Shown here: positions 31,948 to 59,800 of the stretch, piece by piece
How positions within the stretch are numbered: position 1 is the stretch's first letter
Layout: every line of letters begins with the position of its first letter
Notes under the pieces: model-generated
Told to the model about the DNA's origin: nothing
The model's input: the letters and a program-made list of their open reading frames with translations, nothing else
Databases searched by the model: none
Program-made: the position numbers and the translations under genes
Assembly (NCBI RefSeq): GCF_026210795.1
Contig: NC_089432.1
Coordinates: 1,674,001 to 1,738,000 of the forward strand
Origin: Rhizophagus irregularis
Lineage: Eukaryota
Length of the DNA: 64,000 nucleotides
Direction of reading: 5' to 3'

Positions 31948-33871
31948 CCCTATGAAAAAAAATCATCCAATTTTTGTACAATATTTGTTCAAGTCCGTAT
32001 GGAAATTGTACAATTATTGCAGATTTTTGGATAAAAATAGCTATGAAGTTTTTCATAGCATATTAAAAGTATGCAATTTTTGTACAACTTAAATTTAGGA
32101 TATAGAAAATGTTCAATTTTTGTGTGATCTTTATACAACTTAAATTTAGAATACAGAAAACATTCAATTTTTGTACAATAAAAATTGTGATTATTGTACA
32201 ACCCCTATGAAAAAAAATCATCCAATTTTTGTACAATATTTGTTCAAGTCCGTGTGGAAATTGTACAATTATTGCAGATTTTTGGATAAAAATAGCTGTG
32301 AAGTTTTTCAAAGCATATTAAAAGTATGCAATTTTTGTACAACTTAAATTTAGGATATAGAAAATGTTCAATTTTTGTGTGATTTTTATACAACTTAAAT
32401 TTAGGATACAGAAAACATTCAATTTTTGTACAATAAAAATTGTGATTATTGTACAACTTGAAAATAGACTTAAATTTAGGATACAGAAAGCAATTTTTAG
32501 GTAATCCTACTATACTACTTTCCATCTTACCTGTATGGTTACATTTGACCACTTTTAGGGTCGAATTAAGGTTGCTTGTCTAAACCTCTTCAAAATCCTA
32601 CGATTAGTTTCGTCAAAATTTTACTATAGATTTATTATAGTTTCGGCAGAGTTTCGGCAGTTTCGGCATTTATAATAAGTTTCGGCAGTTTCGTCTTTCT
32701 CCAAAGTTTTGCCAGTTTTTTAATATAACTTTAATATAGTTTCGGCAGAATTTCGCTTTTCGGCGAAACGCCATCTTGCCTAAACCCCTAGGTTTCGGCA
32801 AGCAACCTTAGGTCGAATAGACCACTTTTAACCATTACAAATAGATTTTCCTAAGTAAAGTGATTTATGCAGTAAGGTTACACAAAATTCAACTGCATAT
32901 TTGCTTATAAACGGGCATCTTCCGGACCCATTGGTGAAATTTTTGTATCATCTTGTAACTAAAAAAAAGTCAAAAACTTTTTATTAGGTTACACAATTAG
33001 TTCTGACCGGAATTATAATTTGGCCAGAATTATGCGGTAAAAATCAACTCTTAAAATTATATATGTTGATCACGTGATCTGATCGTCAAAATAAATATGA
33101 TGACGCGAAATGTTTTTGTTTATGTTTTTTTAACCTTTTAACTTTTCTTCAACTTTCTTTTAAAATATTAAGTAAGAAAAACTTGTGTTCTTTATTTTTT
33201 TATTTTCCTAACTTTTTACATTTTAATGTTATTAACTTGCTTTCTTCACTAACTTCATACTTTTTTTTATTACTAATACTAATAATTTACTTTTTAACAC
33301 TACTAATTTGCTTTCTTCACTAACTTCATACTTTTTTATTACTAACACTATTAATTTACTTTTTAACACTACTAATTTGCTTTCTTCACTAACTTCATAC
33401 TTTTTTATTTAATACTAATAATTTACTTATACTAATAATTTACTTTCTTCTTTGATACTACTAATTTACTTTCATGTTACTAACATACTTTATTTTATTT
33501 TATTTTCTTACAAATTTTTATATTTATGATTATATCAAATTCAGTATTTTATTTATGAAATATTGTGTATATTTTTTATATTTTAAGTCAATAAAAAAAA
33601 TTCATAATTTCACTTTATAAATTGCCTGTTATTACTGTAAAATTTAACCTATAATTCCTAAAATATGGCCTAAAATTTGGCTCAAAAATCACACAATAAT
33701 TGTATAAATTCAGGTCAAAAATAGGATAATTATTGAATGAATTACCATGCAATAATTGTGTGATTTATTGCAATTTTTAGCACAATTATTGTATGGTCAA
33801 ATATACAGAAATCGTAGTGAATTTAATTGAATGATTTTTCAACAAAAATCACACAGACTTTTTTCATAGGG
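31948..33871. mobile_element. Non-autonomous TIR element with CCC...GGG termini (CMC/EnSpm-like, superfamily uncertain)
   Basis: CCCTATGAAAAAA ... TTTTTTCATAGGG; the first 255 bp are tandemly duplicated (second copy starts 32203); TTGTACAA/ACAATWATTG subterminal repeats. Confidence 0.75.
32567..32810. mobile_element. hAT-like MITE nested in the CCC element
   Basis: TIR TAAGGTTGCTTG / CAAGCAACCTTA; 8-bp TSD GGTCGAAT; internal GTTTCGGCA repeats. Confidence 0.9.
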
Positions 33872-36226
33872 TATAATGATTTGGAGTTATGTGATGACTT
33901 GGAATTAGAAGACACGTATCTAAAATCGGCCAATGATTTGACATTAGCTTTAAAATTTTGTCAAGGTAACATTTTTAATTTCTTTGTTATTTACTATATA
34001 TTTTGACAACCAATTTCATTATTAGATCGAGATGCTGTTATGTTAGCATATTTATTAGAATATTACTCTGAAAATTCTATGACTCATATTGGCTGGATGA
34101 TTAATGTTACAAAAATACTTCCAGAGTTATCAGAATTATCTAATCATGATTATTATGGTATAATAATGTATTTGTTATTCAATTAATATTATTATATGTA
34201 TATATATTTCATTAAAAAAGATATTATTTTTTATTCATATAGGTAATTATATGGATTTAATACTCTATAAACCTTGTTTTGGAGAAATGAAGTACAATTT
34301 TCCAATTAAAAAATTCCGAGCGTTATCAGTTTGTCAAGATACATTAGAAGTATATGTACCTCTTACTAATCTTTTATCAACAAATTCTTCGGATCTTTTT
34401 TTATATAATAAAATGAGGTATACATCATATAATCTAATTAATTTTAGATCTTTTACTGATGATATTTCTTAATACAGGGAGGATATATTGCCCAATACTT
34501 ATATGGTTCCACTTCCAAATTTTACAACACATGATGCAAAAATTGAAGGAAAATCCAAAAAAGGAATTATACCTTTTTTGAAAAAAACATTTTTTCCACC
34601 TGGCTATAAGAACTTTGGAGACGAAAAATTTAGCCCATTTCTTCAAATTAAAAAAAACGAAGAAGTATTTTTTAGCATTCCAGCAATAGAAGCAGCTATA
34701 AATTCAAGATGGCATCAAGCAATGGCATATTGGATAAGACCATTATGTTTATATGCTATATTTTTAATTCTGTTTGCTATTATTCTTCAGTTTTACAAAG
34801 TACAAGATGTAACTGAATTTACGCAAGTCGGAAGCGGAATATTTTATTATATTGGATTATATCTATTAGTAAATGAATTTATGCAAATAAGGAAGTATAA
34901 GGTCAAATACATTACAATATTTAATTTATTTGATCTAAGCAGTATTATTTTGGGTATGATTGCCGTTTCTTTGGATTTTGTTTTTTTCGTACCCATTATT
35001 TATACAGTAGTTACATTGATACTTTGGATTGAAATGGTATGGTTTATGACTTTTGGATACTAATTTTTAATAATTTTACATTAATTTATCTTTACTTTCT
35101 AAAGCTCTTATGGCTTCGATTATTTTCAGTAATAGCCATAAATATTTTTATTTTTGGAAATCTTTTGAAAAAGATCACACCATTTTTTACATTTATGTTT
35201 ATTTTAATAATTGGATTTGCGAATTCAATGTAATAGTATTCTTGTTTTTATTGTTATATTAAGCATGATATTAAAGAAAATTAACTTTATTTTATATTTA
35301 TATGCAGAATTTTTCTTCTTGTAACCCCATCAAATTTAACTTATACATTAGAAGATAAAAATGCAGAATATAGTTTCACAGGTCCAATTCAAGATAATCC
35401 TGTTGATACAATATGGAATGCTATACTTTCCATGTACTATTTGAGTACAATTAATTTGAATAGTTATAGCGATGATTCGCTATTTAAGCTATTTATTTTT
35501 GTTGCTAATGTTGTTATAGTTCTTGTTCTATTTAATATGATTATTGCATTGATGAAGTAAGTAATATATTTACTAAATAGTATTTGTTTAAATGCTTATC
35601 TGACCTTTAAATTTATGTTTAGTGACACATTTAAAAAAGCCAAAAATGATGGTAATATTGGACTTTTGATGTACAGAAAAGAACTTATTGATGATTTTGA
35701 AAGACTTGATATTCCCTTTAATAAACTTCAACTACATGATTCACCATATATTTGTTATCTTCAGGATCCTAACTTGATGAAAAAATGGATGAAAAAATCT
35801 CAAGAGCTTAGAAAAACAAAATTGTATTCATGGTTTAAAGAGAGTGTTGATAAAGAAAATATAACTTATGATGGAGTTGACATTACACCTTGGTATAAAC
35901 TTATTTTAAGTAATGAGAATCAAGATTCTATATCAACTCCTGATCATATGACACTTTGGTTCTAGTTCTTTTACTTTTATTTTTATACTTAGATTATATT
36001 GTATTTATTTTGATGTACTTTTTATTTTATTATTATTTATTCATTAAAGAATTAATTAACATGATATTATTTGATTAAATTTTAAAATAAATCTTTATTT
36101 TGTTCAATCTCTATATATACGAAAGTATGAAATTAAGTATATTTTAAATATATTTTAAAGTATACTTTTAGTGTATAAAAATATACTTTACTGAAACCCA
36201 TGAAATCGCGACTATGTAGTAGCCAT

Positions 36227-36855
36227 TGTAATGCCGTAGTATATCTAGTAAATTTATTAATTGTGAGGCGCAGTATTACATTTAGTCTTAGTGTATAAAA
36301 TTTTAACTTATTTTTATTTTTATTTTAATTGGACCGAAAAGTCGTTAAACTATTAATCATGAGAATCAAGGATAATTGGTCTGTGATGACCTTAAACTAT
36401 TAGTCACGAGATTTAAGGATAAATGAAGATCCGAAAGATACTAAATTGGATGAAATCAAGTGATCTGAGGTGTCAAGTGATTAATTTGTTGATCACTACG
36501 TTAATATTATAAATCATAATTCAGGAGTTCATGATGATCAAATGGATACAAAATTAAGATAATGGAAATACTTTAAGATAATGGAAATACTTTAAAATAA
36601 TGGAAATACTTTAATAATTTAAATCCATGAATCGAAATTATGAATTTAGTTACACAAAAACAAACATAAAAGGGCGTGAAGATCAACTATTGAAAAAATA
36701 GAGAAATTGGACGAATTTTGTTATGAATTATTTATTTTGTTATTTAATGTTATTAAACCAAGCATATTATTGTATTTATTTATATTATGAATAAAGAGTC
36801 ATTTTGTTAATACCTGAGGTGGCAAACATAATTCTCTATGGGCTCAGGTGTTACA
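36227..36855 (+). repeat. 5' LTR
   Basis: TGTAATGCC...GGTGTTACA; matches the 3' LTR except T36382 versus C46759 by eye. Confidence 0.98.
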
Positions 36856-36857
36856 AG

Positions 36858-36874
36858 TGGTGCATGCTCCGAGA
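36858..36874 (+). promoter_or_regulatory. Primer binding site, probably tRNA-Gly
   Basis: TGGTGCATGCTCCGAGA lies 2 nt after the LTR; it is the complement of a tRNA 3' end ...TCTCGGAGCATGCA-CCA. Confidence 0.85.
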
Positions 36875-37448
36875 AAGGAAAAGTGATCATCCTCACATGA
36901 TCACTACAGGTTATAAGTACAGGATCTCTGAGAAAAGAAAATGATCACCCCCACGTAATCATTAGAAGTTACAAATAAAGGATCGACGAAGTTAAGGAAT
37001 TATAAAATTAAAAGTTCTAAGTCTTGGTTAAAAAAGAATTTAAGGTGTATTAACGTTAAATTTTAATAAAATAAAGTTAAATATTTTTAAGGATACGTGA
37101 AAATAATGGTTACCAAGGTAAAAGGTATTAATTTGGGTGAGTATGACCATAAATGTATAAAGAGATAATGTTAAAAATTAAATTTTTGATCTAACTTGAC
37201 CACCGGCTGATAAGTCAATGAAAAATTATTATTGCAATAATTTTCATACATATGAACCAAATATGTATGGTAGTAATTGATTATCAAGGGAAATGCGAGG
37301 CTAATCAAGTTAGAAGGGGTTTTAATAGAATATTGTAAATAAGTTCCATGAATTAAGGATTAAAAATAATTTTTATAAATAATTGAGGTTAAGTTAAGGA
37401 TAAAAAGTGTACCCAAAAACCGACACTATAAATACGATGGTAGGGTAA

Positions 37449-37657: not shown

Positions 37658-37771
37658 GGTACCCAAGAAGAATCATGATTAACGTTAACGAAAATAAAAA
37701 TAATATTTGCTGGACAAATATATTCAAGGAAAGTTATAAAAAGGTGAGGAATTCGATCTCTCACCCATAAA

Positions 37772-38455
37772 ATGGAATACAAAATCAATTTAACAAAAGA
37801 GGATTCAGAAAAATATTTGTGTAAAGGAAAAGGAATTAAATTAAAAATTTATAATGAAGACAATAAGGCCATCAGTCTAAAGACCATCTATGATGTTAGA
37901 CCACCCAAGAAAAAGAAAAAGAGATGTTTGACCTGTGATAATAGAGAACATGTGAAAAGGACCAAAAGTGAGAATAAAGTGGAAAGATTTATAAATGAAT
38001 TGTTGACACCGGTAAATGTGGAAGACCTATTGATACCAGAAATACAAAATGTAGAAATTCATGATGTTGAAAAATTAGTAGAAAGATACATCAGTCTTGG
38101 AAATACAAATGGTAAAAACATCTTAATATGGTACAATATTGGACAAATTTTTGAACGAGAAATTAAAGCAAGAATAAATCAAACAAAGCCAGACCAGACA
38201 GCTAGAGAAGAATTATATGATGAAATGATGGAATTTATAGTTAATGAAAGTACTGATGAAAAACAAAAGAAGAAGGAAGCATTAAGGAAAAGGATGCAAG
38301 GAGCTATAAAAATATATAAACTTTTTACTGAAATTGGTCAAGATAAGATATATAGAGTAAAGGAAACATTTGTAACGACTATTATAAAATTGACAAATCC
38401 GGAAATACAACAAATAATCGGACAAATCAAATATGGATTCACACTTCAACCTTAG
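37772..38455 (+). CDS. Retrotransposon accessory ORF1 (227 aa), function unknown
   Basis: Intact ORF with AAAATGG start, basic PPKKKKKR (NLS-like) segment, CxxC and a helical C-terminus RKRMQGAIKIYKLFTEIGQDKIYRVK. Confidence 0.8.
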   Translation: MEYKINLTKEDSEKYLCKGKGIKLKIYNEDNKAISLKTIYDVRPPKKKKKRCLTCDNREHVKRTKSENKVERFINELLTPVNVEDLLIPEIQNVEIHDVEKLVERYISLGNTNGKNILIWYNIGQIFEREIKARINQTKPDQTAREELYDEMMEFIVNESTDEKQKKKEALRKRMQGAIKIYKLFTEIGQDKIYRVKETFVTTIIKLTNPEIQQIIGQIKYGFTLQP

Positions 38456-38619
38456 GTTGGAAAATTTTATGGAATATAAATTTATTTGTACAAACCTGTA
38501 AACTACCATACTCAGTAATGAACAAATGAGGTAAAGGCAAGCCCAGTATAGGTCAAATAAAATATAAAAGAAGGATAAAAAGTAAAAGACGTGAAAATTT
38601 TTAGAGAATTTTATTAAAA

Positions 38620-41600
38620 ATGGAATGGTACCATGTTTGGAACGCTGGATATATAAACCATAAACAGGAACATGACCTAGGAGTGATAGAACCAGAGGAA
38701 TGTTTAGCATGTGAAATATGTAACCCAATAGAAAGAGAAGTATCAGCGGCATTCAAGAAATTTTGGGATGTTTTATTTAAATTCGAGGATACAATACTAA
38801 TGTACAATAATGTAACACATAAAGAATTATTGAATTTATTAAGTATGGACAATAGAGAAAGGGAGGATACAATACATAAAGGAAAATGTAGGAATATAGT
38901 AGATAGAATAATTGAATCAATAAGGTACAGACAACAACCAAAAATGAAAGAAAAAGGTTTAAGGATAATAATTGTAGTAATTGTAAGGGATTGTATTGAA
39001 GGAAATTTGGAAAATGAAGTATTTGACCGGTTAATTGGATGTCCAGAAATAATGGAACATGGATATATTTTGGAAGATTGGGATATTGAAAACAGATTTC
39101 AAAAATTTTGGGAATGGTACGGTTCAATATTAGAATTTGGGGTGGAAGTAATCCATGCGACACCAGAAACAATAGTAATATTCAGGGAATTATTATACAT
39201 GGAAGAAATCATAACTGAAAATATAGGAAAAGTAATTGATTTAACGAATACAATTGTTTACAGGAACCCATTAAGAGAGGGAGAATCAAAACAACAAGAA
39301 TGGGAAAGATTGATACAGAAAGTGTTACAAAGATTTATTGACACCAAACAATTTACAAGGGAACCTGAGGACCCAGAAAGTGATAGTCCTGAAAGTTATG
39401 AATTAGAGGACAGTGATGGTAGTATACATTATGAAATAAAAATAGAGGATGATGTCAAATGGACAGTGGAATCATTAAAAAGAAAAATTGAAGAAATGGG
39501 TGGAAGGTTCACCGACAAAGATATACAAAGAATGTGGGACCTAAGGATAAGGATAGAATTGATATTAACAGAGGACTTTTTAGGTACATTTTTCGAATTA
39601 ATGGGACTAAGTGATGAAAAATTAAAAGATGAAATAAATGAATGGTTAACAAAAGAAACATTAATATGTGGAAATTGTAGGAATAGAAAGTTACCTGATA
39701 TGATAGCAGACATTGGACAATGTAAAAATTGTGAACAAGAAGTATTATTAGAATTAAAGGACGACTTAGAAAAACTAGGGTACGAATTAAATGTGTCAGA
39801 AATAGGGAGAATAAGAGAATTCAGGATAAGCAATAGTATAATATTAACAACGGAATTTATGGAAAAATATCTCCAGGAAATTGATACGAATGACAAAGAA
39901 TTAAGGATAAAATTATATGAATGGATAAATGAAAATACCACATTTTGTGATGAATGTGGAATAAGATGGATGAACAATAAATTTGACGAAGGAAAAACCA
40001 AGTGTAGGGATTGTGAAAATGACGAAAATGAAATTGATATCAGGGTTAAAAGATTAAAACAAATATGTGATGATAATAAAATAGGAATAACTAATGGAGA
40101 GTTATTGAGGTTAATCAGTATGGGATATACTGATGGAGAAATACTGGATCAAGAATTTATTGAAATATTCCAAGGAAATAAAAATGAAATGGAGAAAAAT
40201 TTAAGGCGAATATTAGATAAATTTCTAAAACAGCAAGCTGGAATTGAGGATAGTGAAAGTAGTGGAAATGAATCTGATAATGAAAAATCTGATGGATCTG
40301 AAAAAGAATCAGATGGATCTGGAAAAGACGGAGAAATTTTAAATCCAAATGATACCGATAACAATGAAAATTTTGAAGAACCTTATGAAGAAAACATTAT
40401 AAATAGACCTGGTTTTGACTCAAGTGAAAGTTCAGAATCAAACCCTGAGGATAAAAGTGAAATATCTGATTATAATATAGAAAATTTATTTGAAACACCT
40501 TTAACACCACCGATACCACCAATTCTACCAATAGTACCAATAATTATAGGAGCAACAAGAGCTGAAGTAAGGGAAGATTTTAGAGCGGCTTTACTAGCAG
40601 CAACAGGACATGATATAGGAGGTAATTGGGCTGGATTAGTCGCAGCCAATCCATTAGCAAATGCAATTGAGGATGCAGGAAATGTAGCTGGAGGAATAAT
40701 TAGTATGCCACAATTTTATGGAAGGGAAGAAGAAGACATAAACGATTGGGTAAGACAATTTGAAACAGCATTTACTGCTATAGGAAAAGCAGCAGGAGTA
40801 AATGGAGCTAGACAAGCAGCAATGGCAGCTACCTGTTTGAAAGGTGCAGCAGCACAATGGTATAATGAAAAGAAGGAAGCAAACAATGGTCATTTGGTAA
40901 ATTGGCAAGATAACGATAATGATAATGATTTAAAACATAGGATTAAACAACGATTTACCAGGGAAGATGTTAGAAAAAGGAAAATGTTAGAATTAAGGAA
41001 AATAACACAAGGAGTAAATGAAAATGTTGAGGCATATACGATAAGGTTTAGACAAATATTAAGGATAGCTACCAGAGGCCATGCATTAGATGATGAATTA
41101 CAAGTGGATAATTATATCGAAGGATTAACACCAACATTGGGATATCAAGTCAGAAGACAAAACCCAGCAAATTTAAATGATGCAGTAAATACAGCAAGGA
41201 GAGAAGAGGAAGCTACTAATGAATTAATGAGAAAAACACTTAATATACCAATTAATACCCAAAGAAAAGGAATCGATATACAAGACGACAAGCCAAAGAA
41301 TATATTTGAAAAACCATTGGAGAAAAATTATGAGGATGACCTTGCCGACATGTTTAAAAAATTAGAGGTAAAACTAGTAAATCAACTTGGAGGGCAAAAG
41401 AGACCACCAAACAATAACAATAGACAAGGACCACCACCTCGAGCATGTTATAATTGTAAACAACCAGGACATTATGCAAATGAATGTAGGGTAAATAATG
41501 GTCAAAGAAACTATGGAAGACCAAATAATCAAAATTATAATAGAAGATCAAATAACTATAATGGAAGACCAAATAACTATAACAGACCACCAAACCACCA

Positions 41601-42204
41601 AAACAATAATCGAGGATTCAATGTAGTGGAATATGATAATTATAATGACCAATATGACCAATATGATTATGATAGTCAGGATTATCAGGATAATTATGAC
41701 CAAGGATATAGTTATGATGACCCGTATTACCAAGATAATGATGTAACATTTAACCATGTTGATCAAGATTTTTATATTGGTGAAAGACAAACGAGAAGTA
41801 ACATAAAGAATAGGTCAAGTAATCGAGATATAGATATGGAAATTGACCAAGAACAAACACGAAGAAGGAATAATAAATATGCAAGCCAAGAGGAAAGGGC
41901 AGCAGCATTACCAAAAAGAGGATTCACTGATGAAAGTCTGAGGAAAGCACAAGAAGCAAGGAGAAATAATAATACATGTAGAAATTGTGGACAAAGAGGT
42001 CACTATGCAAAACAATGTAAAAATGAACGTGTTGAAGGTATCCATAGGACAAGCGCATTTCAGAGGAACATACCAGAATATAACATAATAGAGGATCTGA
42101 AAAATACCAGAGCAAATGCAACCTTTTCACAAATTATAAACATGAGTCCAGAGCAAAGGAAAATATATTATGAAGGAATGAGAAGGTATCCACAAACAGA
42201 TTGA
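38620..42204 (+). CDS. gag: Gag polyprotein with a long N-terminal extension (1194 aa)
   Basis: Ty3-type capsid from ~40705 (PQFYGREEEDINDWV...LKGAAAQWY...QGVNENVEAYTIRF...YIEGL); two CCHC knuckles CYNCKQPGHYANEC and CRNCGQRGHYAKQC. Confidence 0.93.
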   Translation: MEWYHVWNAGYINHKQEHDLGVIEPEECLACEICNPIEREVSAAFKKFWDVLFKFEDTILMYNNVTHKELLNLLSMDNREREDTIHKGKCRNIVDRIIESIRYRQQPKMKEKGLRIIIVVIVRDCIEGNLENEVFDRLIGCPEIMEHGYILEDWDIENRFQKFWEWYGSILEFGVEVIHATPETIVIFRELLYMEEIITENIGKVIDLTNTIVYRNPLREGESKQQEWERLIQKVLQRFIDTKQFTREPEDPESDSPESYELEDSDGSIHYEIKIEDDVKWTVESLKRKIEEMGGRFTDKDIQRMWDLRIRIELILTEDFLGTFFELMGLSDEKLKDEINEWLTKETLICGNCRNRKLPDMIADIGQCKNCEQEVLLELKDDLEKLGYELNVSEIGRIREFRISNSIILTTEFMEKYLQEIDTNDKELRIKLYEWINENTTFCDECGIRWMNNKFDEGKTKCRDCENDENEIDIRVKRLKQICDDNKIGITNGELLRLISMGYTDGEILDQEFIEIFQGNKNEMEKNLRRILDKFLKQQAGIEDSESSGNESDNEKSDGSEKESDGSGKDGEILNPNDTDNNENFEEPYEENIINRPGFDSSESSESNPEDKSEISDYNIENLFETPLTPPIPPILPIVPIIIGATRAEVREDFRAALLAATGHDIGGNWAGLVAANPLANAIEDAGNVAGGIISMPQFYGREEEDINDWVRQFETAFTAIGKAAGVNGARQAAMAATCLKGAAAQWYNEKKEANNGHLVNWQDNDNDNDLKHRIKQRFTREDVRKRKMLELRKITQGVNENVEAYTIRFRQILRIATRGHALDDELQVDNYIEGLTPTLGYQVRRQNPANLNDAVNTARREEEATNELMRKTLNIPINTQRKGIDIQDDKPKNIFEKPLEKNYEDDLADMFKKLEVKLVNQLGGQKRPPNNNNRQGPPPRACYNCKQPGHYANECRVNNGQRNYGRPNNQNYNRRSNNYNGRPNNYNRPPNHQNNNRGFNVVEYDNYNDQYDQYDYDSQDYQDNYDQGYSYDDPYYQDNDVTFNHVDQDFYIGERQTRSNIKNRSSNRDIDMEIDQEQTRRRNNKYASQEERAAALPKRGFTDESLRKAQEARRNNNTCRNCGQRGHYAKQCKNERVEGIHRTSAFQRNIPEYNIIEDLKNTRANATFSQIINMSPEQRKIYYEGMRRYPQTD

Positions 42205-42744
42205 CTACAAGAATCAATGAACAACATTGAAGCAGAACATTTAACTGCATTAAGGGGTAAATTAATAATAAACCAAGAATTAAAGGACGTAATGTTTGAT
42301 ACAGGAGCAGCAGTAAATGTAATAACTAGTCAGATAATGGATGAAATGGACCTAAAAATTGAGGAACCGAGTACAGTAAGATGTGTGATGATAAATGAGG
42401 ATAAATTAGCATCTAGGGGTACCACGACAATATACATACAATTTGGGGATAAAGAAATACCCATTAAGGTTGAAGTAATTGATTCAGGAAAAAACGAAAT
42501 TGTGTTAGGAAATGGAGTATTAGATATGTTCAAAGCAAATATAGATTACACAGATAAAACAATAATAATTAGAATGAATGATGAAACTATGGATATACCA
42601 GTAAAATACACACAAAGGACCATTAAAGGGTTTGAAGAAACATTTGATGAAGAGGAAATATTAGAAGAATTATACCAGGATGAATTGTATAACATATATG
42701 AAGATGACCATGAAGGTCAGGAAGATGAAAATTTTAAAATATAA
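42205..42744 (+). CDS. Aspartic protease, in frame with gag behind a single TGA
   Basis: FDTGAAVNVI catalytic motif and IVLGNGVL; same frame as gag. Confidence 0.9.
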   Translation, partial: LQESMNNIEAEHLTALRGKLIINQELKDVMFDTGAAVNVITSQIMDEMDLKIEEPSTVRCVMINEDKLASRGTTTIYIQFGDKEIPIKVEVIDSGKNEIVLGNGVLDMFKANIDYTDKTIIIRMNDETMDIPVKYTQRTIKGFEETFDEEEILEELYQDELYNIYEDDHEGQEDENFKI

Positions 42745-44219
42745 GTCTTGGTCAGAATGATACTGAAGAGACGATAAAGAAGCACAAAAGTGACCATGAA
42801 AAATTTACTGAAAAATTTAAAGTAGGGGACATAACCAATGAACAAAAAGGTAAATTAAAAGTATTAGTAGAAAAATATAAGGATATATTTGAGTACGATG
42901 GTGAAAAATATAATAGGACAAACCTAGTAAAACATGAAATCAGATTAAAAGGGGGTACTGAACCATTAGCCCAAAAGAGGTACAAAGAAAATGATGAAAA
43001 AGGTAAATTCATCAGAAAAGAGGTTGACGAGATGTTAAAATTGGGAAAAATTAGAGAATCTAGAAGTCCATGGTCTTCACCAGTGACTTTAGCAGGGAAA
43101 AAGTCGGGAAATTATAGATTTTGCATCGACTATAGAAAATTAAATAAAGTTACAATAACAGATGCATATCCATTACCGAGGATTGACGAACAATTAGAAA
43201 GGATAAGTTCAGGAAAATGGTTTACCAGTCTAGATTTAGCATCAGGGTTTAATCAGATAGAAATGGCTGAGGAAGATATTGAGAAAACAGCATTCATATG
43301 CTCAGCAGGATTATATGAATATAATGTCATGCCATTTGGGTTAACAAATGCGCCTGCAAGTTTTCAAAGGTTAATGGATAAAGTATTAAAGGAGTACCTA
43401 AATGAATTTGTGATAGTATACATTGATGATATAATGATATATTCGGAAAATTTTGAAGACCACCTAAAACACATAAAGTTAGTGTTAGAAAAATTAAAGG
43501 AAGCCAGTTTAATACTAAAGTTAAAGAAATGTATATTTGGGAAAACAGAAATAGAATTTTTAGGACATGTAGTTGGTAAAAATGGATTAAAACCAAGTCC
43601 AGGAAAGGTCGAAAAGATACAAAAATTAACAGCACCTATAAATATAAAAGGTGTAAGGTCAATATTAGGGTTATGTACGTATTATAGAAAATTTATTAAA
43701 GATTTTTCAAAAATAGTAAAACCAATAACATCTTTATTGAGAAAAGATGAAAAGTTCGAATGGGGCATCAAACAACATGAAGCATTAGAGATATTAAAAA
43801 GGAAATTAACCGAAGAACCGGTGTTAAGACAACCAGATTGGTTAAGGAAATTTATATTAATTACAGATGCTTCAGGAGTAGGATTAGGGGCAGTGTTAGC
43901 TCAAAAAGATGATAAAGGTCAAGAATATGTAATAGAATATGCCAGTAAAAGTTTAAACAGGACAGAACAAAGATGGCCAATAACCGAACAAGAATGTTAT
44001 GCAATTGTATGGGGAATACAACATTTCCATAAATACTTGATCAATAGAAAATTTGAGGTAGTAACAGACCATGCAGCTTTGAAGGGATTAATGACTGCAA
44101 AAGTACCAAAAGGAAAGAGATCAAGATGGGTCATGGAATTGGAACAGTATGATTTTGAAATAACCCATAGACCAGGAAAAGAAAATAAAAACGCAGATGC
44201 CTTATCAAGAATAATATAA
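42738..44219 (+). CDS. pol: Reverse transcriptase-RNase H (frame open from 42738, -1 relative to protease)
   Basis: VKHEIRL..PLAQKRY, SPWSSPV, RFCIDYRKLN, LDLASGFNQI, MPFGLTNAPASFQ, YIDD, TDASGVGLGAVL, EQECYAIVW, TDH, NADALSR. Confidence 0.97.
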   Translation, partial: NISLGQNDTEETIKKHKSDHEKFTEKFKVGDITNEQKGKLKVLVEKYKDIFEYDGEKYNRTNLVKHEIRLKGGTEPLAQKRYKENDEKGKFIRKEVDEMLKLGKIRESRSPWSSPVTLAGKKSGNYRFCIDYRKLNKVTITDAYPLPRIDEQLERISSGKWFTSLDLASGFNQIEMAEEDIEKTAFICSAGLYEYNVMPFGLTNAPASFQRLMDKVLKEYLNEFVIVYIDDIMIYSENFEDHLKHIKLVLEKLKEASLILKLKKCIFGKTEIEFLGHVVGKNGLKPSPGKVEKIQKLTAPINIKGVRSILGLCTYYRKFIKDFSKIVKPITSLLRKDEKFEWGIKQHEALEILKRKLTEEPVLRQPDWLRKFILITDASGVGLGAVLAQKDDKGQEYVIEYASKSLNRTEQRWPITEQECYAIVWGIQHFHKYLINRKFEVVTDHAALKGLMTAKVPKGKRSRWVMELEQYDFEITHRPGKENKNADALSRII

Positions 44220-44255: not shown

Positions 44256-44495
44256 ATGGAACAAGTGGTAAGAAATACAAATCATAAAATAAAGGATATA
44301 ATCGAAAATTTAGAAGGTATAACAAAGGAATTAAACAGGATAAAGTATAACTATAAATTCAAAGCCAAAAATTTTGAAGATAGTGAAGAAAGACCATTAA
44401 TATTGGAAACTCAAGAGGAAATATTACAAATAGGGGTGATATTAAGTAAAGTAAACAAGCTAAAATTATCAGAATTATGTAAAAATGGGACCTAA
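44256..44495 (+). CDS. Small accessory ORF (79 aa, predicted coiled coil) between RNase H and integrase
   Basis: AAAATGG start; heptad-like IKDIIENLEGITKELNRIK; overlaps the next ATG by 11 nt. Confidence 0.55.
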   Translation: MEQVVRNTNHKIKDIIENLEGITKELNRIKYNYKFKAKNFEDSEERPLILETQEEILQIGVILSKVNKLKLSELCKNGT

Positions 44496-46266
44496 AATAA
44501 TAATCATATGTGGAGTTGATGGTACTGGAAAAACATTCATTGTAAATAAACTTATAAAAGAATTTGAAAAAGTAGGACAAAGTGTGAGGTTTAACACCTT
44601 TAAAAGGAGAAGAGAGGACAATGATAAGTATAAAATACCAAAGAAAGGTATAGAATGGGAATTCAGGAAGGAAGTTGTCGAACAAATCAACAGGAGAATG
44701 GAAGAACATGATAATGAAGATTGGTTAATATTAGATAAAAGTCCCTATAGTGAGTACTTTTATCAACAAACACCATCATTCGACAGAGGATACATAACAA
44801 GATATGAGAACCACCTATTAGAAAAGGAAGTATTTAGGAACAAAAGGATAATTGATGAATCAATAGTGATATTTTTAGAAAATGAAAAATGTTGGGAAAA
44901 TTACAAAGGTAGAGAACATTCGAAAAAGGATCAAGGACATAAAACATCATATCCATTATTAGATGAAGAAAGATATATGGAGATGGTGAAATCATTTAAA
45001 GAATGTCAAGATATTTACGAAGGAGAAAAATATGCTAATATTAAAATATCGAATAATGACACAGATTGGGAAAGAGTATATAATAAAGTAATAGAATTAG
45101 ATGGAGATAAACCACCAATAGAGGTTAAAAATGTTGAGATTAAGGATAACATCAGAGTAACTGATGGTAAAAAGCATATTGAGAAAAATGGTAAAAATAT
45201 AAGAATAATAGAAGACTTTGAAAAGATGGGAGCACTATATTTAGCTCACAGTCATGAATTATCAGCACATATGGGAATCAAAAGTACTTATGATAATTTA
45301 AAAGATAAATATTATTGGGAAAATATGCTGAATGATGTTGAAAGATATGTAAGGACATGTGATGAATGTCAAAGAAGAGGAAAACCACAAGGGAAAAATG
45401 AATTACACCCAATTAAAGTAGTAGAACCATGGTATCAAATCGGGATCGACTTTGTTGGACCATTGAACACAACAACAAATGGTAATAAGTACATCATAGT
45501 AGCAATGGATTATTTTACAAAATGGCCAGAAGCCAAAGCAGTAAAGGAAGCAACTGCCAAAGAAGTATCAAAATTTATTTATGAAGACATCATTTGTAGA
45601 CATGGATGTCCAATGAAAATATTGAGTGATAGAGGAAGTCATTTCAATAATGAAATGATTAAAGAATTAATGGAAAAATTCAAAATTAAATGGAATTTTT
45701 CTACAAGTTATCATCCAGAGACAAACGGACTTGTTGAAAGATTCAACCGAACATTAGGTCAAGCATTAGCAAAATTATCAACCAAAGATGATTGGGATCA
45801 AAGGATAGCACCCATATTATTTGCTTACCGAAATAAAAAGCATAGTTCAACAAGAATTCGACCATTTTATTTAACATACGGAAGAAATGTACGGACAATA
45901 ATGGATGAAAATATCAAAGAAATTAACCTAAGTGATAGAATAGTTGGATTATTAGAAGAACTACCAAAAATCTGACATGAAGCCAAAGAACAAATACTGA
46001 AATCTCAAACAAAACAAAAAGAGTATCATGACAGAAAAATAATCAAAGAACACACCTTTGGAATTGGAGATAAAATACTACTCTATGATAAAGCCAAAGC
46101 ACAACAACTATCGGGAAAATTAGAATCAAAATGGTTGGGACCATTTTACATTCATGAAATACTACCGAATGGAGCTTATAGAATTAAAAATATTAAAGGT
46201 GTCATCAAGAAGATACCTGTAAATGGAGAATTATTAAAGACTTACCATACACCGATGAGTAAATGA
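44485..46266 (+). CDS. dNMP/thymidylate-kinase-like P-loop domain fused to integrase (internal TGA at 45973-45975)
   Basis: N-terminal IIICGVDGTGKT and LILDKSPYSEYFY; HHCC (AHSHELSAH..CDEC); DDE core (GIDFVGP, SDRGSHF, VERFNRT); after the TGA the same frame continues with a GPY/F domain (GKLESKWLGPFYI) to TGA 46264-46266. Confidence 0.92.
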
Positions 46267-46498
46267 TAACTATCATCAATGGACTTAGAAAAATAAAGAT
46301 AATTTATAATCATGTGAAATAAAATCACATGACATAAAAATAATTTTCGAAAATAGGAAAAACTAATGAAAATTTCCTAAGAAAGACCAAAGTGAAATCC
46401 GGTACAAGAAAACCGTAGACTTAACAAACACATGATAAACCGCAGATGTAGACGCAGCAAAAAGGAATATTTAAAACGCAGCTGAGTCAAGTGACAAT

Positions 46499-46589
46499 GC
46501 ATGTTTGATTTAGTGGTATAATTCGCACCTACCACTTCGAGACACGAGTTCGATTCTTAGAATAAATTTAATGTGGGCATTAAATTTTT
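46499..46589 (+). ncRNA. Degenerate tRNA-Gly-like sequence with Pol III A/B boxes, hairpin and T5 inside the retrotransposon
   Basis: GCATGTT-TGATTTAGTGGTATAATT-CGCAC-CTACCAC-...-GAGTTCGATTCT; then hairpin AAATTTAATG/CATTAAATTT and TTTTT. Confidence 0.65.
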
Positions 46590-46591
46590 AT

Positions 46592-46602
46592 GCGGGGGAT
46601 AG
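46592..46602 (+). promoter_or_regulatory. Polypurine tract
   Basis: GCGGGGGATAG immediately before the 3' LTR. Confidence 0.8.
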
Positions 46603-46603
46603 T

Positions 46604-47232
46604 TGTAATGCCGTAGTATATCTAGTAAATTTATTAATTGTGAGGCGCAGTATTACATTTAGTCTTAGTGTATAAAATTTTAACTTATTTTTATTTTTAT
46701 TTTAATTGGACCGAAAAGTCGTTAAACTATTAATCATGAGAATCAAGGATAATTGGTCCGTGATGACCTTAAACTATTAGTCACGAGATTTAAGGATAAA
46801 TGAAGATCCGAAAGATACTAAATTGGATGAAATCAAGTGATCTGAGGTGTCAAGTGATTAATTTGTTGATCACTACGTTAATATTATAAATCATAATTCA
46901 GGAGTTCATGATGATCAAATGGATACAAAATTAAGATAATGGAAATACTTTAAGATAATGGAAATACTTTAAAATAATGGAAATACTTTAATAATTTAAA
47001 TCCATGAATCGAAATTATGAATTTAGTTACACAAAAACAAACATAAAAGGGCGTGAAGATCAACTATTGAAAAAATAGAGAAATTGGACGAATTTTGTTA
47101 TGAATTATTTATTTTGTTATTTAATGTTATTAAACCAAGCATATTATTGTATTTATTTATATTATGAATAAAGAGTCATTTTGTTAATACCTGAGGTGGC
47201 AAACATAATTCTCTATGGGCTCAGGTGTTACA
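46604..47232 (+). repeat. 3' LTR
   Basis: 629-bp direct repeat of 36227-36855. Confidence 0.98.
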
Positions 47233-48479
47233 CCATGCTGCCGCCACTTAACGTAGTAGGCGTACGGCTACTCTATATTAATTCTAACGCAGTTGTATGT
47301 ATTTAATATAGAAAATATATAGTAGATTATCATCATAATATAGAAATTGTATCGCCAATACAAAGAAACTATATAAATGTTAGCTAGAAACTGTATAAAT
47401 GATTTAAAGTAATGATATATGTGATTTGCATTAAACATGTAGTAAATTCATAGAAAATTTGTATTAACTTTATAATAAATATGCAGTAAATACATAATAA
47501 GTATATAGTGAATTCATAGTAAATACATAATAAATATATAACAAATTGCAGTAAATATATAGTAAATTCACAGTAAATACATTAAATATATAATAACAAA
47601 TTCATAGATATGAGTCTGATCACATTCCAAAAATCGTTAAGTATGGCGCAGCAAAATTGCGCCAAGTTCTCATGAACGAGACCCGGGAAATAAATTTGGA
47701 TGGGACGCATGATTAGGTGGCGTAGTCAGCCAAGCTGATTGGGCAGAAACTTTACTGCGGTATTTTTGGGACCCGAATGCGGAACCTCGTGGCGATGGTG
47801 TCCTAGCCAGCTAACGGAGATGTAAAATGTACTGATTGTAGGAAGTGTCTGGGGTATTTTACTACAGTCTCTTCTAATAATACGTAAGAAATAATTTCTG
47901 GTCGGACTTATCCTACGTAATTCGTCCCTTCGGCGTTTTTTTTGAAATTTCACGGATGCTCCTAATACAAATATTTCCAATAATTACAGGACACTATTTA
48001 CCAATATATATGGAAACCAGAACGTGAATGGTTCAAAACCTTTCAACTCCTCAAAAAAAGACAAATCCATTATCAACGTCGCTCAAAGAAAATTCGTCAT
48101 ACGGTAAACACAATCCTGCAACCACATCCACTTCATTACACCATACTCTCCGAGGTAATTCTCCGATCTCACTCAATCCTATGTCATGTGTCCCTATCTA
48201 CGTACCCTCGAAGAAAAAAGAAAAACACTTCATCTTTCCTATGAAGCTCGTAAATAACACCTCTCTACCGACGACGCGTTCATTAAATGGACGTTATCAA
48301 ATTATTCGCAGGCACTTGGATGTCTCATAGAAATATAGATAGATTTTTTTTTCTTTCGTATATAGAAAGTGGATTAGGTAATGAGGAATAAAGTGTATAG
48401 AATTATTAAAAAAATCGCGTTCTAAAGTTCACAGAAAGAGAAGTGAAAAGTTAATAACAATCACTGAAAGTAAATAAAT

Positions 48480-50570
48480 CTAAATAATCTAAATTAAAAA
48501 AACGAACTTATCATAGTTCGTTCTTTTAAATCCTGGTCGTTTAGCTTCGTCTCACGTCCAGGTTTCCTAAAAATAAAAGAAAGGGAATGTTAATAACGTT
48601 CCCTTAAGTAAAAAATAAAAATAGAAATAAAGAAACGAACTTACCATAGTTCGTTCTTTTTTTTTAAATCCTGGTCGTTAACGTCTTAACGATTTCGTTC
48701 GTCTAAGTTTCCTAAAAATAAAAGAAAGGGAACGTTAATAACGTTCCCTTAAGTAAAAAAAATAAAAATAAAAATAAAAAACGAACTTACCATAGTTCAT
48801 TCTTTTTTTTAAATCCTGGTCGTTAACGTCTTAACGATTTTGTTCGTCCAGGTTTCCTAAAAATAAAAGAAAGGGAACGTTAATAACATTCCCTTAAGTA
48901 AAAAAATAAAAATAAAAATAAAGAAACGAACTTACCATAGTTCGTTCTTTTTTTTTAAATTCTGGTCGTTAACGTCTTAACTTCGTTCGTCCAGGTTTCC
49001 TAAAAATAAAAGAAAGGGAACGTTAATAATGTTCCCTTAAGTAAAAAACCTAAGTAATTAATAGCGCAAGTAAAAATTAAAAAAAAAACCTAAAAAAAAG
49101 AAAAATGAACCCTTACCGCCTAGTTCGTTCTTTTTTTAAATCCTACGTTAACGTTCGATTAACGTTCGTTCATCCAGGTTTCCTAAAAATAAAAAGAAAG
49201 GGAACGTTAATAACGTTCCCTTAAGTAAAAAATAAAAATAAAAATAAAAAAGCGAACTTACCATAGTTCGCTTTTTTTTAAATTGTTCGTTTTTTTTTAA
49301 CGTCTTAACGTCGTTAATCAGGTTTCCTAAAAATAAAAGAAAGGGAACGTTAATAACGTTCCCTTAAGTAAAAAAATAAAAATAAAAATAAAAACGCTTA
49401 CCTAGTTCGTTCTTTTTTTAAATCCTGGTCGTTAAAAGTCTTAATGATTTTGTTCGTGGTTTCCTAAAAATTAAAAAGAACGTAACGTTCCCTTAAGTAA
49501 AAAAATAAAAATAAAAATAAAGAAACGAACTTACCATAGTTCGTTCTTTTTTTTTAAATTCTGGTCGTTAACGTCTTAACTTCGTTCATCCAGGTTTCCT
49601 AAAAATAAAAGAAAGGGAACGTTAATAACGTTCCCTTAAGTAAAAATAAAAAAAAAACCTAAAAAAAAGAAACGAACTTACCATAGTTCGTTCTTTTTTT
49701 TTAAATCCTGGTCGTTAACGTCTTAACGATTTCGTTCGTCCAGGTTTCCTAAAAATAAAAGAAAGGAACGTTAATAATGTTCCCTTAAGTAAAAAAATAA
49801 AAATAAAAATAAAGAAACGAACTTACCATAGTTCGTTCTTTTTTTTAAATCCTGGTTGTTAACGTCTTAATGATTTTGTTCGTCCAGGTTTCCTAAAAAT
49901 AAAGAAAGGGAACGTTAATAACGTTCCCTTAAGTAAAAAATAAAAATAAAAATAAAAAATGAACTTACCATAGTTCGTTCTTTTTTTTTAAATCCTGGTC
50001 GTTAACGTCTTAATGATTTTGTTCGTCCAGGTTTCCTAAAAATAAAAGAAAGGGAACGTTAATAACGTTCCCTTAAGTAAAAAAATAAAAATAAAAATAA
50101 AGAAACGAACTTACCATAGTTCGTTCTTTTTTTTTAAATCCTGGTTGTTGACGTCTTAACGACTTCGTTCGTCCAGGTTTCCTAAAAAAAGAAAGGGAAC
50201 GTTAATTACGTTCCCTTAAGTAAAAATAAAAAAAAAACAAACAAAAGAAACGAACTTACCATAGTTCGTTCTTTTTTTTTAAATCCTGGTCGTCAACGAC
50301 TTCGTCCACGTCCAGGTTTCCTAAAAAAAAGAAAGAGAACGTTAAATTACGTTCCCTTAAATAAAAAAATTAAAAAAAACCTTAAAAAAAAGGTTCTTTT
50401 TTTTTAAATCCTGGTCGTTAGGCTTCGTTCGTCCAGGCTTCCTAATAAAAAAGAAGGAACTATTAATTACGTTCCCTCAAGTAAAAATAACAAAAAAAAA
50501 GAAACGAACTTACCTAGTTCGTTCTTTTAAATCTTGGTCATCCTGCGTCCGTTCGTCCAGGAAAGGGTTT
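48480..50570 (-). repeat. ~146-bp tandem array (~15 units) with an exon/intron-like unit on the minus strand
   Basis: Unit contains GAACTTACCATAG...CCAGGTTTCCTAAAAATAAAA...GGGAACGTTAATAACGTTCCC; the minus strand reads TTTTTAG|GAAACC...CTATG|GTAAGT. Confidence 0.9.
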
Positions 50571-56869: not shown

Positions 56870-59800
56870 ATGGATGAAATCGAAACCGAAATAGACGAAC
56901 ACATAAAAAAAAATGAGTACGTTGAAGATCTAGAAAGTGGTAATTATACTTACGGAGAAAAAATCAATTATGTTGCCATTAGCCCAAATGGTTCGATAGT
57001 AGCAAAGTTTAATCCATGTAAGTTATATTTGATATATACTTTATTCAATTTTTCATTTTAAAAATAATAGGGTAAATTCTTCCTAAACTTATTTCTTCAG
57101 ATGACTCTTCTATATTAGTCACAAAAGTGACGACGAATGCAAATAAAAATATACCCTTCGATAAGAAAAAATTCTTTAATAAAAAACCATCTAATGTTTT
57201 TGGTTGGTCTTTAGCAATTTCGGACATAATTGATGAAGGAAATGATATTGGGTTGGTTGCAATTTCTTGTGCAACCGACATAGACACAAGTCCAAAAGAA
57301 ATTGAAAAAGAAAATTTGCAAAAAGCATCAATTAGAAAACAATTATTAATATTATTGCCAGATTTCCAATTCATCTTAATTTTCTTATTTATTTGTTATT
57401 ATTCGGTCATTATTGGTTACACACATAATTTAAATCTTTACTTTTATCTATTTTTTATTATCATTTTCATGAATATTCTTTATTTTTACGAATCTTATAA
57501 CACTCCTAAAATCCTAAAGACTGATATAAAGCAATCTCTTATTTCTAGTGAAGGAATGATAAAAATTTTTAAATTTTCATTTAACGATAACAACAATGAT
57601 AAAGAAGACGATAATTATTCAATATATCATCTTGGTGGAGCTGTTACCTTTTTAAATAATTCTAATAAGAATAGTACAACACTTATCTGCATGAATTGTG
57701 TGGAAATACAAAAAATTAATATTATATTGGACAAGAATATTATTATATCAAAAGAAGGTATCTATTTATTACCTGAAAATTTATTTAAAAAATTAGGAAG
57801 TTTTAAAGATTCAAAATGCAAATGGAAATATCTTTTAAAATCTAAATTTCAGAAATTTTTAATGATTGATACGAGTAAAAATGATCACGTACAAAGCATT
57901 GAATTATATGATGTTAATAATTTACAATTAATAAATGTGTTTTATAGACATCTTGAAGATTGCTTAATTTCAAATGATAAAAACCTGGAATATTTGCGAT
58001 ATCAACTGATTCAAGATTATTTGCTTATTCTTATGGAGATAATATTATTACAATTTATTTAATGGAAAGTGGACTTGAGGTCGTTTCAAAGAAATTTGAT
58101 AATATCTTTAAAATTAAATTTTTAGAATTTATTGAAAAAGATAAAAAATTATTCATTATTGAAGAAGATAGAGAAAGTAATGTGAAATTTCATATTTGGA
58201 TTATATCAGGATGTTTAAATGATTATTTTTCCATTTCTAAAGATGATATTGGTTTATCGGATAGTAATATCTCTATTCTGTCAAAATATGATGAGCATCA
58301 TAATGCTTTTACAAAAGCAAATGGAAAAGTAGTTTTTAAAATTGATGGGGAACAGTTTAGAACCGTACACGAAATAACTATACAAAGAACGATTTTTGGA
58401 GAAAATGATGCTGTAACTGATGAGTATGAATATCAATCATGTAATCTAGAACCATGGAATAATTATGATAATACAAAGACTATTAGTGGTAGATTTCTTA
58501 ATAACGACAAAAGATTGCTTCTTATAATTGGTCAAAATAGCATTCAACTATGGAAATCTAAATCCATAAATTTTGTAGATTTTAACAATTTTAAAAAATT
58601 TTGAAAATTCGAATCTTGTTTATATTTTAATAAGTGATAGCATCGAACCAGAAAAAAAAGCCAAATTTCAAATTAATGATGACATGACTACCATTATATC
58701 TCATGCATGTAGATCACTTGCTTATCTATATAAACATACAAAAAGTATTTATTCTAGAGAAAAATATCAAAAATTCATTAACGGGATCATGTATATTATT
58801 AAAGACTTTATAAAAAATTATCCTGATAATTGGAAACTTATGGAGGTTCAACACCCTTTAATGGCATATCTAATTTATTCACGCTCATTTTCTCTAATCA
58901 AATATATTCTGTTTGAAACTAATACCCATGCTAAAATGTTACACAAACCACAAAGTAAATATACATATAACAATTATTTGGAATCAGCCAGTGATTTGAA
59001 ATTGAAATTATTTGAAGATTTAGAATTGAATGATGAAAGTTTGAAACCAGCTAATGATTTGGAATTGGCTTCAAAATTCTGTCAAGGCTAACACTTTAAG
59101 TTCATCCTTGTTATTATTAAGTAATAAGTAATATATTTTTAACATCAACTTTATTAATAGATCGAGATGCTGTTATGTTAGCATATTTATTGGAATATTA
59201 TTCTGAAAATTCTATGACTCATATTTGTTGGATGATCAATGTTACAAAATACTTCCAGAATTATCAAAATTTTCTTATAATGACTATTATGGTATATTGC
59301 AGTATTAAATTTTAGTGTTAACTTATATAAGCTTTGTTATTAAAAGTATTTATTATTAATTAATATAGGTAGTTATATGGATCAATTATTTTACAAGCCT
59401 TGTTTTGGAGAAATGAGATATAATTTTTTAATTAGAAGATTTAAAGAATTATCAGTTTGTCAAGGTATATTAAAAGTATACGTGCCACTTACTAGTATTG
59501 TACCAAAAAATTCTTTGAGTTATAAGAAAGTAAGGTATGTATCATTTAATTTAACTCACTCTTTATAAATCTTTAATTTATTGTTTTTATCTTTAATGTA
59601 GGGAGGATATTTTGCCTGATATCTATATGGTTCCACTCCCAAATTTTACAACACATAATTTTAGGGTTGTAGAAAAGGATGGAAAAGGAATATTTAAAGG
59701 AATTAAAAATTTCATATATTTGTTGGGATATATATTCCTTCCACCAGGTTATAAGAAATTAGAAGACAAATATTTTAGTTCATTTCATCAAATTAAAAAA

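Follow-up and report, generated by a model that had tools for sequence, protein, structure and literature searches.

What is a tRNA-like sequence doing directly upstream of the polypurine tract (PPT) of an LTR retrotransposon? The question is raised by positions 46499–46589 of the window, the whole 64,000-nucleotide stretch of Rhizophagus irregularis DNA analysed here (NC_089432.1, positions 1,674,001 to 1,738,000, forward strand). An earlier note had read these letters as copied from the tRNA-Gly that primes the element, and as giving a ~90-nt Pol III RNA or serving as a TFIIIC-binding insulator or promoter. The tRNA copy is real and conserved and probably has a function, though in all likelihood not that of a Pol III gene.

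The host of the copy is a young Ty3/gypsy LTR retrotransposon of Glomeromycota type, about 11 kb long, with gag-pol and of autonomous type. Its two 629-bp LTRs (36227..36855 and 46604..47232, + strand), of the TG...CA form, differ at one position, and a 4-bp target site duplication (TSD), CCAT, lies directly upstream of the 5′ LTR and after the 3′ LTR. An 18-nt primer binding site (PBS) for tRNA-Gly (36858..36875, +) does not extend past tRNA nt 59; the PPT (46592..46602, +, limits approximate) was placed from the sequence and from a layout shared with relatives. The domain order according to Pfam is gag, protease, reverse transcriptase (RT), RNase H and integrase, as in Ty3/gypsy elements. 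The gag ORF (38605..42204, +) contains Retrotrans_gag and zf-CCHC domains and is followed by the aspartyl protease and RT/RNase H frames (42205..44219, +; Pfam, ORFs) and by a P-loop kinase-like domain with integrase (44464..46266, +; Pfam, ORFs, protein match). The integrase of the window shares 99% identity with a protein of Rhizophagus irregularis, and an in-frame stop at 45973–45975 breaks its frame. The P-loop nucleotide-kinase-like domain (44464–45070) forms the N-terminus of the integrase frame and matches AAA_28 with an E value of 1.5e-5, which is below the cutoff; it is common to several Rhizophagus proteins, and relative P0002 has a precomputed annotation as thymidylate kinase (PF02223). 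Matches of this domain in the PDB are confined to the P-loop. A 235-aa frame 5′ of gag (37748–38455) has no Pfam match. Elsewhere in the window, 48470–50500 is an array of ~13 units of ~145 nt, with two inverted repeats per unit, and 18795–23000, 30443–35900 and 57076–61300 are three diverged copies of a several-kb repeat containing a long frame without Pfam matches.

The copy (46499..46557, +) represents nt 1–62 of the primer tRNA-Gly, as judged from a host tRNA contig, and lacks the 3′ strands of the T stem and acceptor. Its 5′ half (46499..46535, +) comprises the acceptor 5′ strand (46499–46505), the D arm with an A-box-like sequence carrying G10A (46506–46516) and the anticodon loop CTACCAC (46529–46535), with ACC as the anticodon. 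The clade-conserved core, delimited by the loci of relatives, corresponds to tRNA nt 42–62, that is, the variable loop, T-stem 5′ strand and T loop (46538..46557, +); it includes a B-box-like sequence (46546–46556), and its best-kept part in the per-position table is nt 44–59 (46540..46554, +). The acceptor strand, the anticodon loop and both box-like sequences lie where the earlier note had located them, and its description of broken stems and a broken 3′ acceptor strand is borne out, with the tRNA match ending at nt 62. The proposed unit of ~90 nt shrinks to 59 nt, since the match stops at 46557.

The identity of the copy was established with a 166-nt Logan contig, which aligns on 46499–46535 without a gap and with five differences (32/37 identical). 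The contig sequence 5′ of 46499 is unrelated, with loose ends there in three of four runs; behind 46535 it runs, again in three of four, into an anticodon-3′/T-arm/acceptor tail, which matches 46539–46557 at 18 of 19 positions and then continues into the reverse complement of the PBS. A host tRNA-Gly match thus exists, beginning at exactly 46499, and the claim that the element carries a copy of its own primer, in sense orientation, is upheld. Among the 5′-half differences listed is 46508 A>G (tRNA G10), i.e. G10A in the copy; stem pairing and the U5 motif GTGGCAR described below are the grounds for inferring the other four, among them a change of the anticodon from GCC to ACC. As a chance control, the 20-nt core (at most 4 mismatches) matches once in the window, and 1 of 30 shuffled windows gave a match.

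The copy was rejected as a tRNA gene: ARAGORN found zero tRNAs in the window, Rfam gave no tRNA match at 46440–46640 even at E < 10, and the absence of the acceptor and T-stem 3′ strands leaves no cloverleaf. As for a tRNA-derived SINE, no tail or TSD of its own was seen at the copy, which is common to several lineages. Contigs of run X17, regarded as RNA only by guess, span the stretch; contigs cannot reveal RNA starts or ends.

Downstream of the copy lies a perfect 10-bp hairpin (46564..46587, +) with a purine-rich loop; it was reported correctly by the earlier note and is unusually stable (z −4.4, 0/200 shuffles equally stable). This hairpin is not tRNA-derived. It is found in 34 of the 75 relative loci having at least 90 nt after integrase, a raw count without shuffle control, and occurs with or without the tRNA motif. 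Nine distinct loop-proximal stems have different sequences and all pair; one of them, in L033, probably lacks homology. In retroviruses, a U-rich tract 5′ of the PPT is described as a known conserved motif in the accessible text of PMC1802577. The T5 run (46585..46589, +), overlapping the 3′ arm of the hairpin, is present in the window as had been claimed and is polymorphic in the family: 46589 T>C shortens it to T4 in part of the family, being the sole covering contig in run X2 and reaching depths of 634/1143 in X6, 5751/19150 in X4 and 0/47 in X5. The supposed Pol III unit thus consists of two separate elements lying side by side, the tRNA copy and a clade-wide hairpin. In the close family, the listed subfamilies whose upstream flank has diverged by 19–21 substitutions and 20–21 gap letters over ~200 nt retain the whole copy, and so do, among the matches listed, subfamilies whose hairpin differs. 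C56T in the B box occurs in single low-depth contigs of the family. The whole 5′ half (46499–46535) is known only from the window's own family; nt 3–9 or 3–12 survive in some relatives.

Distant relatives were collected by a scan with the integrase C-terminus, which found 194 loci; the best 80 of 194 were taken (47–62% aa identity), many of them too short or belonging to an integrase group without an LTR behind the gene. The motif, defined as the 20 nt corresponding to tRNA nt 42–62 with at most 4 mismatches, is present in 14 of these 80 loci, one of which is the seed. The 13 further hits are all on the + strand, with none on the − strand and none in 30 shuffles of 213,733 nt. Close subfamilies and distant relatives carry the copy or its core, always in sense. 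Two loci have the motif 5′ of a hairpin and PPT, as in the window, and 12 have it inside the LTR, 85–165 nt before the LTR end; the two places are mutually exclusive. Among 16 Gly-type LTR ends, the motif is intact in 10 and not in 6, and one of the latter (L040) retains, at the matching place (−130), only a B-box-like heptamer with a TTGTTTG flank. Between eight LTR pairs, from lineages 62–85% identical in integrase DNA, the motif is the sole alignable island. It is absent from L053 (best 8 mismatches), which uses a different primer tRNA.

In 12 non-redundant motifs, nt 44–59 are each kept in 9–12, nt 42 and 43 in 8 and nt 60–62 in 9–10, and nt 45–50, lying outside the box, are kept at 59/60. 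As the motifs were picked for their likeness to all 20 nt, these figures overstate how well positions outside the B box are conserved. G53, T54, C56, G57, A58 and T59 are kept in all 12, and 5 have a change at T55 or C61 of the box. The B-box consensus is intact in the window and in 7 of the 12 motifs. The A box is absent from 11/11 relatives' motifs (best 5–7/11, versus 10/11 in the window). Just upstream of the motif, nt 3–12 match at 10/10 in L008 and 9/10 in L007 and L024, and in L003 and L038 ATGTTTG (nt 3–9) stands directly before A44, the D and anticodon arms being skipped. The statement that both boxes are intact holds for the B box of the window and not fully for its A box (G10A). The A-box half has outlasted the flanks in close subfamilies and is missing from distant relatives. 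That the copy has the identity of the primer, its orientation, its two positions and which nucleotides are kept are established observations.

Several loci of the same set are of separate interest. L053 has a PBS for another tRNA at 3939–3957, and U70 in the acceptor end suggests tRNA-Ala. L016 (1283–1365) has an LTR 95–96%-related to those of L002 and L064, ending about where their motif starts; its PBS is extended by 2 nt, with a second 13-nt antisense T-arm match downstream. L026 (3174–3252) has, 270 nt past integrase, a cloverleaf that resembles a tRNA and whose long anticodon arm contains a T-run; it was discarded as a relative of the feature, as it falls in a separate integrase group (99/97) with no LTR after the gene. 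L028, L032, L041, L048, L050, L054 and others have integrase and then a second frame, with no PPT or LTR; they form a separate group (99/97, four tested rows), possibly DNA transposons. In 13 of 80 loci (e.g. L002, L007, L013) a PBS and leader follow the 3′ LTR, that of L012 being the 5′ LTR; these are either tandem shared-LTR arrays or the result of assembly collapse. Neither relatives nor a PBS match were found in viral contigs, and integrase relatives were not found in genome contigs. When the genome contigs were scanned with a 19-nt motif, 109 prokaryotic loci matched, and 101 of these are called as tRNAs of several kinds; this shows only that the motif is tRNA variable-loop/T-arm sequence. 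Relaxed ARAGORN runs on the relatives gave only noise. The tree, which leaves out L079 (frameshift) and the near-duplicates L008, L013, L059 and L064, is mostly without resolution (4/17 branches starred); the window falls on a deep branch that lacks support, and the tree gives no order for gains and losses.

Other contacts with the primer are also apparent. GTGGCAA near the LTR end (36819..36825, + strand; also 47196–47202), with counterparts in relatives, is complementary to a GCC anticodon loop and is likely an anticodon-binding loop; this complementarity backs the GCC identity of the primer anticodon. In the window, in 15 relative loci 3′ of integrase and in the 5′ LTR of L012, GTGGCAR lies 30–70 nt upstream of the LTR end; as a bare 7-mer it is not above chance (4 versus 3.0 expected). 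It is absent from L016 and from L053, the locus with the other primer. PAS-like CGAACT/GAACTC is found near the LTR end in 9 of 14 leaders, and GTGGCAR often sits in a hairpin loop. By analogy, the two look like counterparts of the A-rich loop and PAS, an HIV-like primer contact set in a fungal gypsy clade. The PBS is extended by 2–3 nt through A58/G57/C56 in 4/4 families without an intact motif versus 1/8 with it (L017 has both), a post hoc contrast (Fisher p = 0.010, n = 12 families, kinship ignored) for which the underlying integrase–LTR–PBS contigs may be assembly joins across copies.

Pairing calculations bear on the partner of the motif. The duplex of the tRNA with the complement of the motif is predicted, with RNA parameters, at −27 to −36 kcal/mol, versus −9 to −16 for the motif with its own leader. 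Pairing with the element's own leader is no better than in shuffles (p 0.13–0.82), and pairing with tRNA nt 59–76 stands out from the shuffles in one motif of 12 (p = 0.01) and not in the other 11. Intramolecular leader pairing and trans-pairing with the tRNA 3′ end were dropped as roles of the motif for this reason, and the earlier view that the copy is not a Ty3-style bipartite PBS stands. In L037, a 160-nt deletion extends from the exact 5′ edge of the motif to inside the PBS; this would agree with a pause at the motif, or may be an ordinary deletion or assembly artefact.

When the 3′ 18 nt of a primer tRNA are annealed to the PBS, nt 1–9 and 44–58 are left unpartnered and the D and anticodon arms stay folded. 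The kept nt 44–59, and sometimes 3–12, are the parts that are single-stranded in this state, and nt 44–59 abut the PBS-bound 18 nt. Sense RNA cannot pair with these freed parts of the tRNA; the minus-strand DNA complement can, and the role of the motif is therefore placed in the minus strand. Here, the complement of the motif would fold back and pair with nt 44–58 of the tethered primer. The resulting RNA:DNA hybrid would adjoin the PBS-protected nt 59–76 and end where the RNA:RNA PBS duplex begins; RNase H would cut it, or it would block the polymerase, so that plus-strand strong-stop synthesis would stop at the PBS boundary. The U5-side position favours cleavage, since a hybrid there would be displaced by plus-strand synthesis before the tRNA is reached; cleavage would leave the 18-nt template needed by plus-strand strong-stop DNA. 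The fold-back also agrees with the invariable sense orientation, with the two motif places, each of which is copied into the minus strand close to the tethered primer, with the extended PBS of motif-less families, with the lack of a motif in L053 and, weakly, with the deletion edge in L037. To the proposal that the core (nt 44–59) acts in this way and ends plus-strand strong-stop without m1A58, we would give a little short of an even chance.

The copy itself would have been captured when minus-strand synthesis switched template, by copy-choice, to the primer or to a co-packaged tRNA, as such a switch explains both the sense orientation and the start at nt 1. Shared non-tRNA letters (T at 6, no C63–G65) suggest one old capture, after which the D and anticodon arms would have been lost in most lineages and the copy trimmed and relocated.

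In retroviruses and many LTR elements, m1A58 of the primer is the presumed basis of plus-strand strong-stop. According to the accessible text of PMC8599865 and PMC13191261, m1A58 sets the end in retroviruses and over-run is fatal unless the genome has an over-extension sequence; plus-strand DNA that lacks a stop over-runs and fails (PMC8599865). The primer tRNA-Gly of Rhizophagus may lack m1A58; tRNA-Gly(GCC) of S. cerevisiae is classed as ‘no m1A’ (955/994 reads) in the part of PMC11514469 available. It is conceivable, and rather doubtful, that in a lineage with a primer lacking m1A58 the element encodes a guide in DNA that targets this primer, with RNase H trimming the tRNA to the PBS-protected 18 nt in place of the host modification on which retroviruses rely, and that guide-less lineages lengthened the PBS. 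Other facts speak against the fold-back. m1A has been reported on tRNA-Gly(GCC) fragments in bee virus work. In Ty1 and Ty3, plus-strand transfer is finished by primer removal and PPT re-priming, as far as the text of PMC5371799 was available, which may make a precise stop unnecessary. Furthermore, the 6 of 16 Gly-type LTR ends without an intact motif imply that it is dispensable, L040 keeps only the B-box-like heptamer, and the proposed hybrid contains true mismatches (T55A in 3/12, C49A in the window, C6T in several).

The core may also be a DNA-level TFIIIC B-box site, acting as an insulator, boundary or chromatin tether, with its tRNA origin incidental. The core contains GTTCGATTC, the six invariant positions G53, T54, C56, G57, A58 and T59 belong to this side of the balance, and so do the flexible position of the motif, the lone heptamer of L040 and the A-box half retained where subfamily flanks have diverged. 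A B-box site would not, however, explain why T55 or C61 is so often changed while nt 45–50 outside the box are kept, why the motif is never reversed or why its sequence is always that of the element's own primer and is missing where the primer differs; we consider such a site unlikely. The Pol III promoter of the earlier note, giving a ~90-nt RNA as in Helenus or Cassandra at least in the window's family, can point to A- and B-box-like sequences at tRNA spacing and to a 5′ half kept in subfamilies with a diverged flank or different hairpin. It is contradicted by the 11 relatives without an A box, G10A in the window, the broken B-box invariants, the clade-wide hairpin and the T5/T4 polymorphism; moreover, the copy lies outside the LTR of an 11-kb autonomous-type element, too long for whole Pol III transcription. 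This makes it the most improbable of the roles considered.

An RNA-level role, in which the copy would mimic a tRNA or work as a switch within genomic RNA, by binding RT, nucleocapsid or GlyRS, by masking PBS/PAS-like sites or by bringing the two RNA ends together, would make use of the antisense contacts near the LTR end (GTGGCAR and CGAACT/GAACTC), which could pair with the sense copy, and has a parallel in the HIV-1 tRNA-like element that binds LysRS. Yet pairing with the leader and tRNA nt 59–76 is at shuffle level, the copy cannot fold a T arm or cloverleaf, and T55A is uncompensated in the antisense partner; this role is distinctly unlikely. Finally, the copy may be a functionless scar of template-switch capture, refreshed by repeated copy-choice conversion. 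A capture of this kind accords with its sense orientation and its start at exactly nt 1, a tRNA-Gly cDNA insertion beside HIV proviruses is reported in the accessible text of PMC12220202, and the motif is missing from some LTR ends. Repeated refreshing is at odds with the shared non-tRNA letters, which indicate one old capture; the status of the motif as sole alignable island between LTR pairs, the selective retention of the single-stranded parts and the PBS-extension association also tell against a scar, which we regard as quite improbable. Fold-back of minus-strand DNA onto the primer is, tentatively, the reading retained here.

Among known systems, Helenus (TRIMp3; Kojima 2024, PMC10886601), as described in the accessible text, is also an LTR retroelement with a non-functional tRNA-derived sequence, which in most relatives here likewise lies inside the LTR. 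Helenus, however, is a short non-autonomous, non-coding TRIM of 311–1263 bp, whereas the window element is an 11-kb gag-pol one; its tRNA part is in the LTRs, whereas the window copy is single and pre-PPT (inside the LTR in 12/14 relative loci); it keeps both boxes, in contrast to the missing A box and altered B-box invariants found here; and its tRNA-like part is described there as lacking PBS complementarity, whereas this copy is the primer tRNA itself (PMC10886601). Membership in Helenus was rejected, as its three defining features (short TRIM, tRNA in LTRs, both boxes) are lacking. Cassandra and Ajax also conserve a small-RNA-gene fragment in LTR elements; according to the same partial source, they are TRIMs bearing sequences derived from 5S rRNA in which promoter motifs are conserved, whereas here conservation tracks the tRNA nucleotides beside the PBS-bound segment (PMC10886601). 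The lentiviral m1A58 stop and over-extension address the same problem, where plus-strand strong-stop ends on the primer, and the PBS extensions of motif-less relatives resemble the lentiviral primer over-extension sequence (PMC13191261); in the accessible parts of these papers, lentiviruses rely on a modified base or on an antisense extension, and a sense copy acting via minus-strand DNA, as proposed here, does not figure there (PMC8599865, PMC13191261). The Ty3 bipartite PBS, HIV-1 PAS and A-rich loop are likewise extended primer–genome contacts, all antisense in RNA as far as the available text goes, unlike the sense motif (PMC5371799, PMC11181671).

A tRNA3Lys-like sequence in U3-R of HIV-1, reportedly described by Piekna-Przybylska in 2010, is said to make the viral RNA complementary to the tRNA and to aid minus-strand transfer. 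Like the present motif, it is primer-tRNA-like, lies at the 3′ end and reportedly affects reverse transcription; here, however, the RNA is identical to the tRNA. Searches of the open full-text literature, which excludes subscription papers and Repbase, brought up no paper on this clade, nor any on autonomous LTR elements that carry their primer in sense. The sense primer copy is a variant of the tRNA-matching cis elements of LTR retroelements, and the mechanism proposed for it is new and testable.

The motif bears on how elements primed by tRNAs without m1A58 complete reverse transcription. A conserved, movable sense copy of 16–20 nt, with a longer PBS as the natural alternative in sister lineages, opens the way to a direct in vitro test. 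More generally, tRNA-like pieces in LTR elements are not necessarily Pol III promoters.
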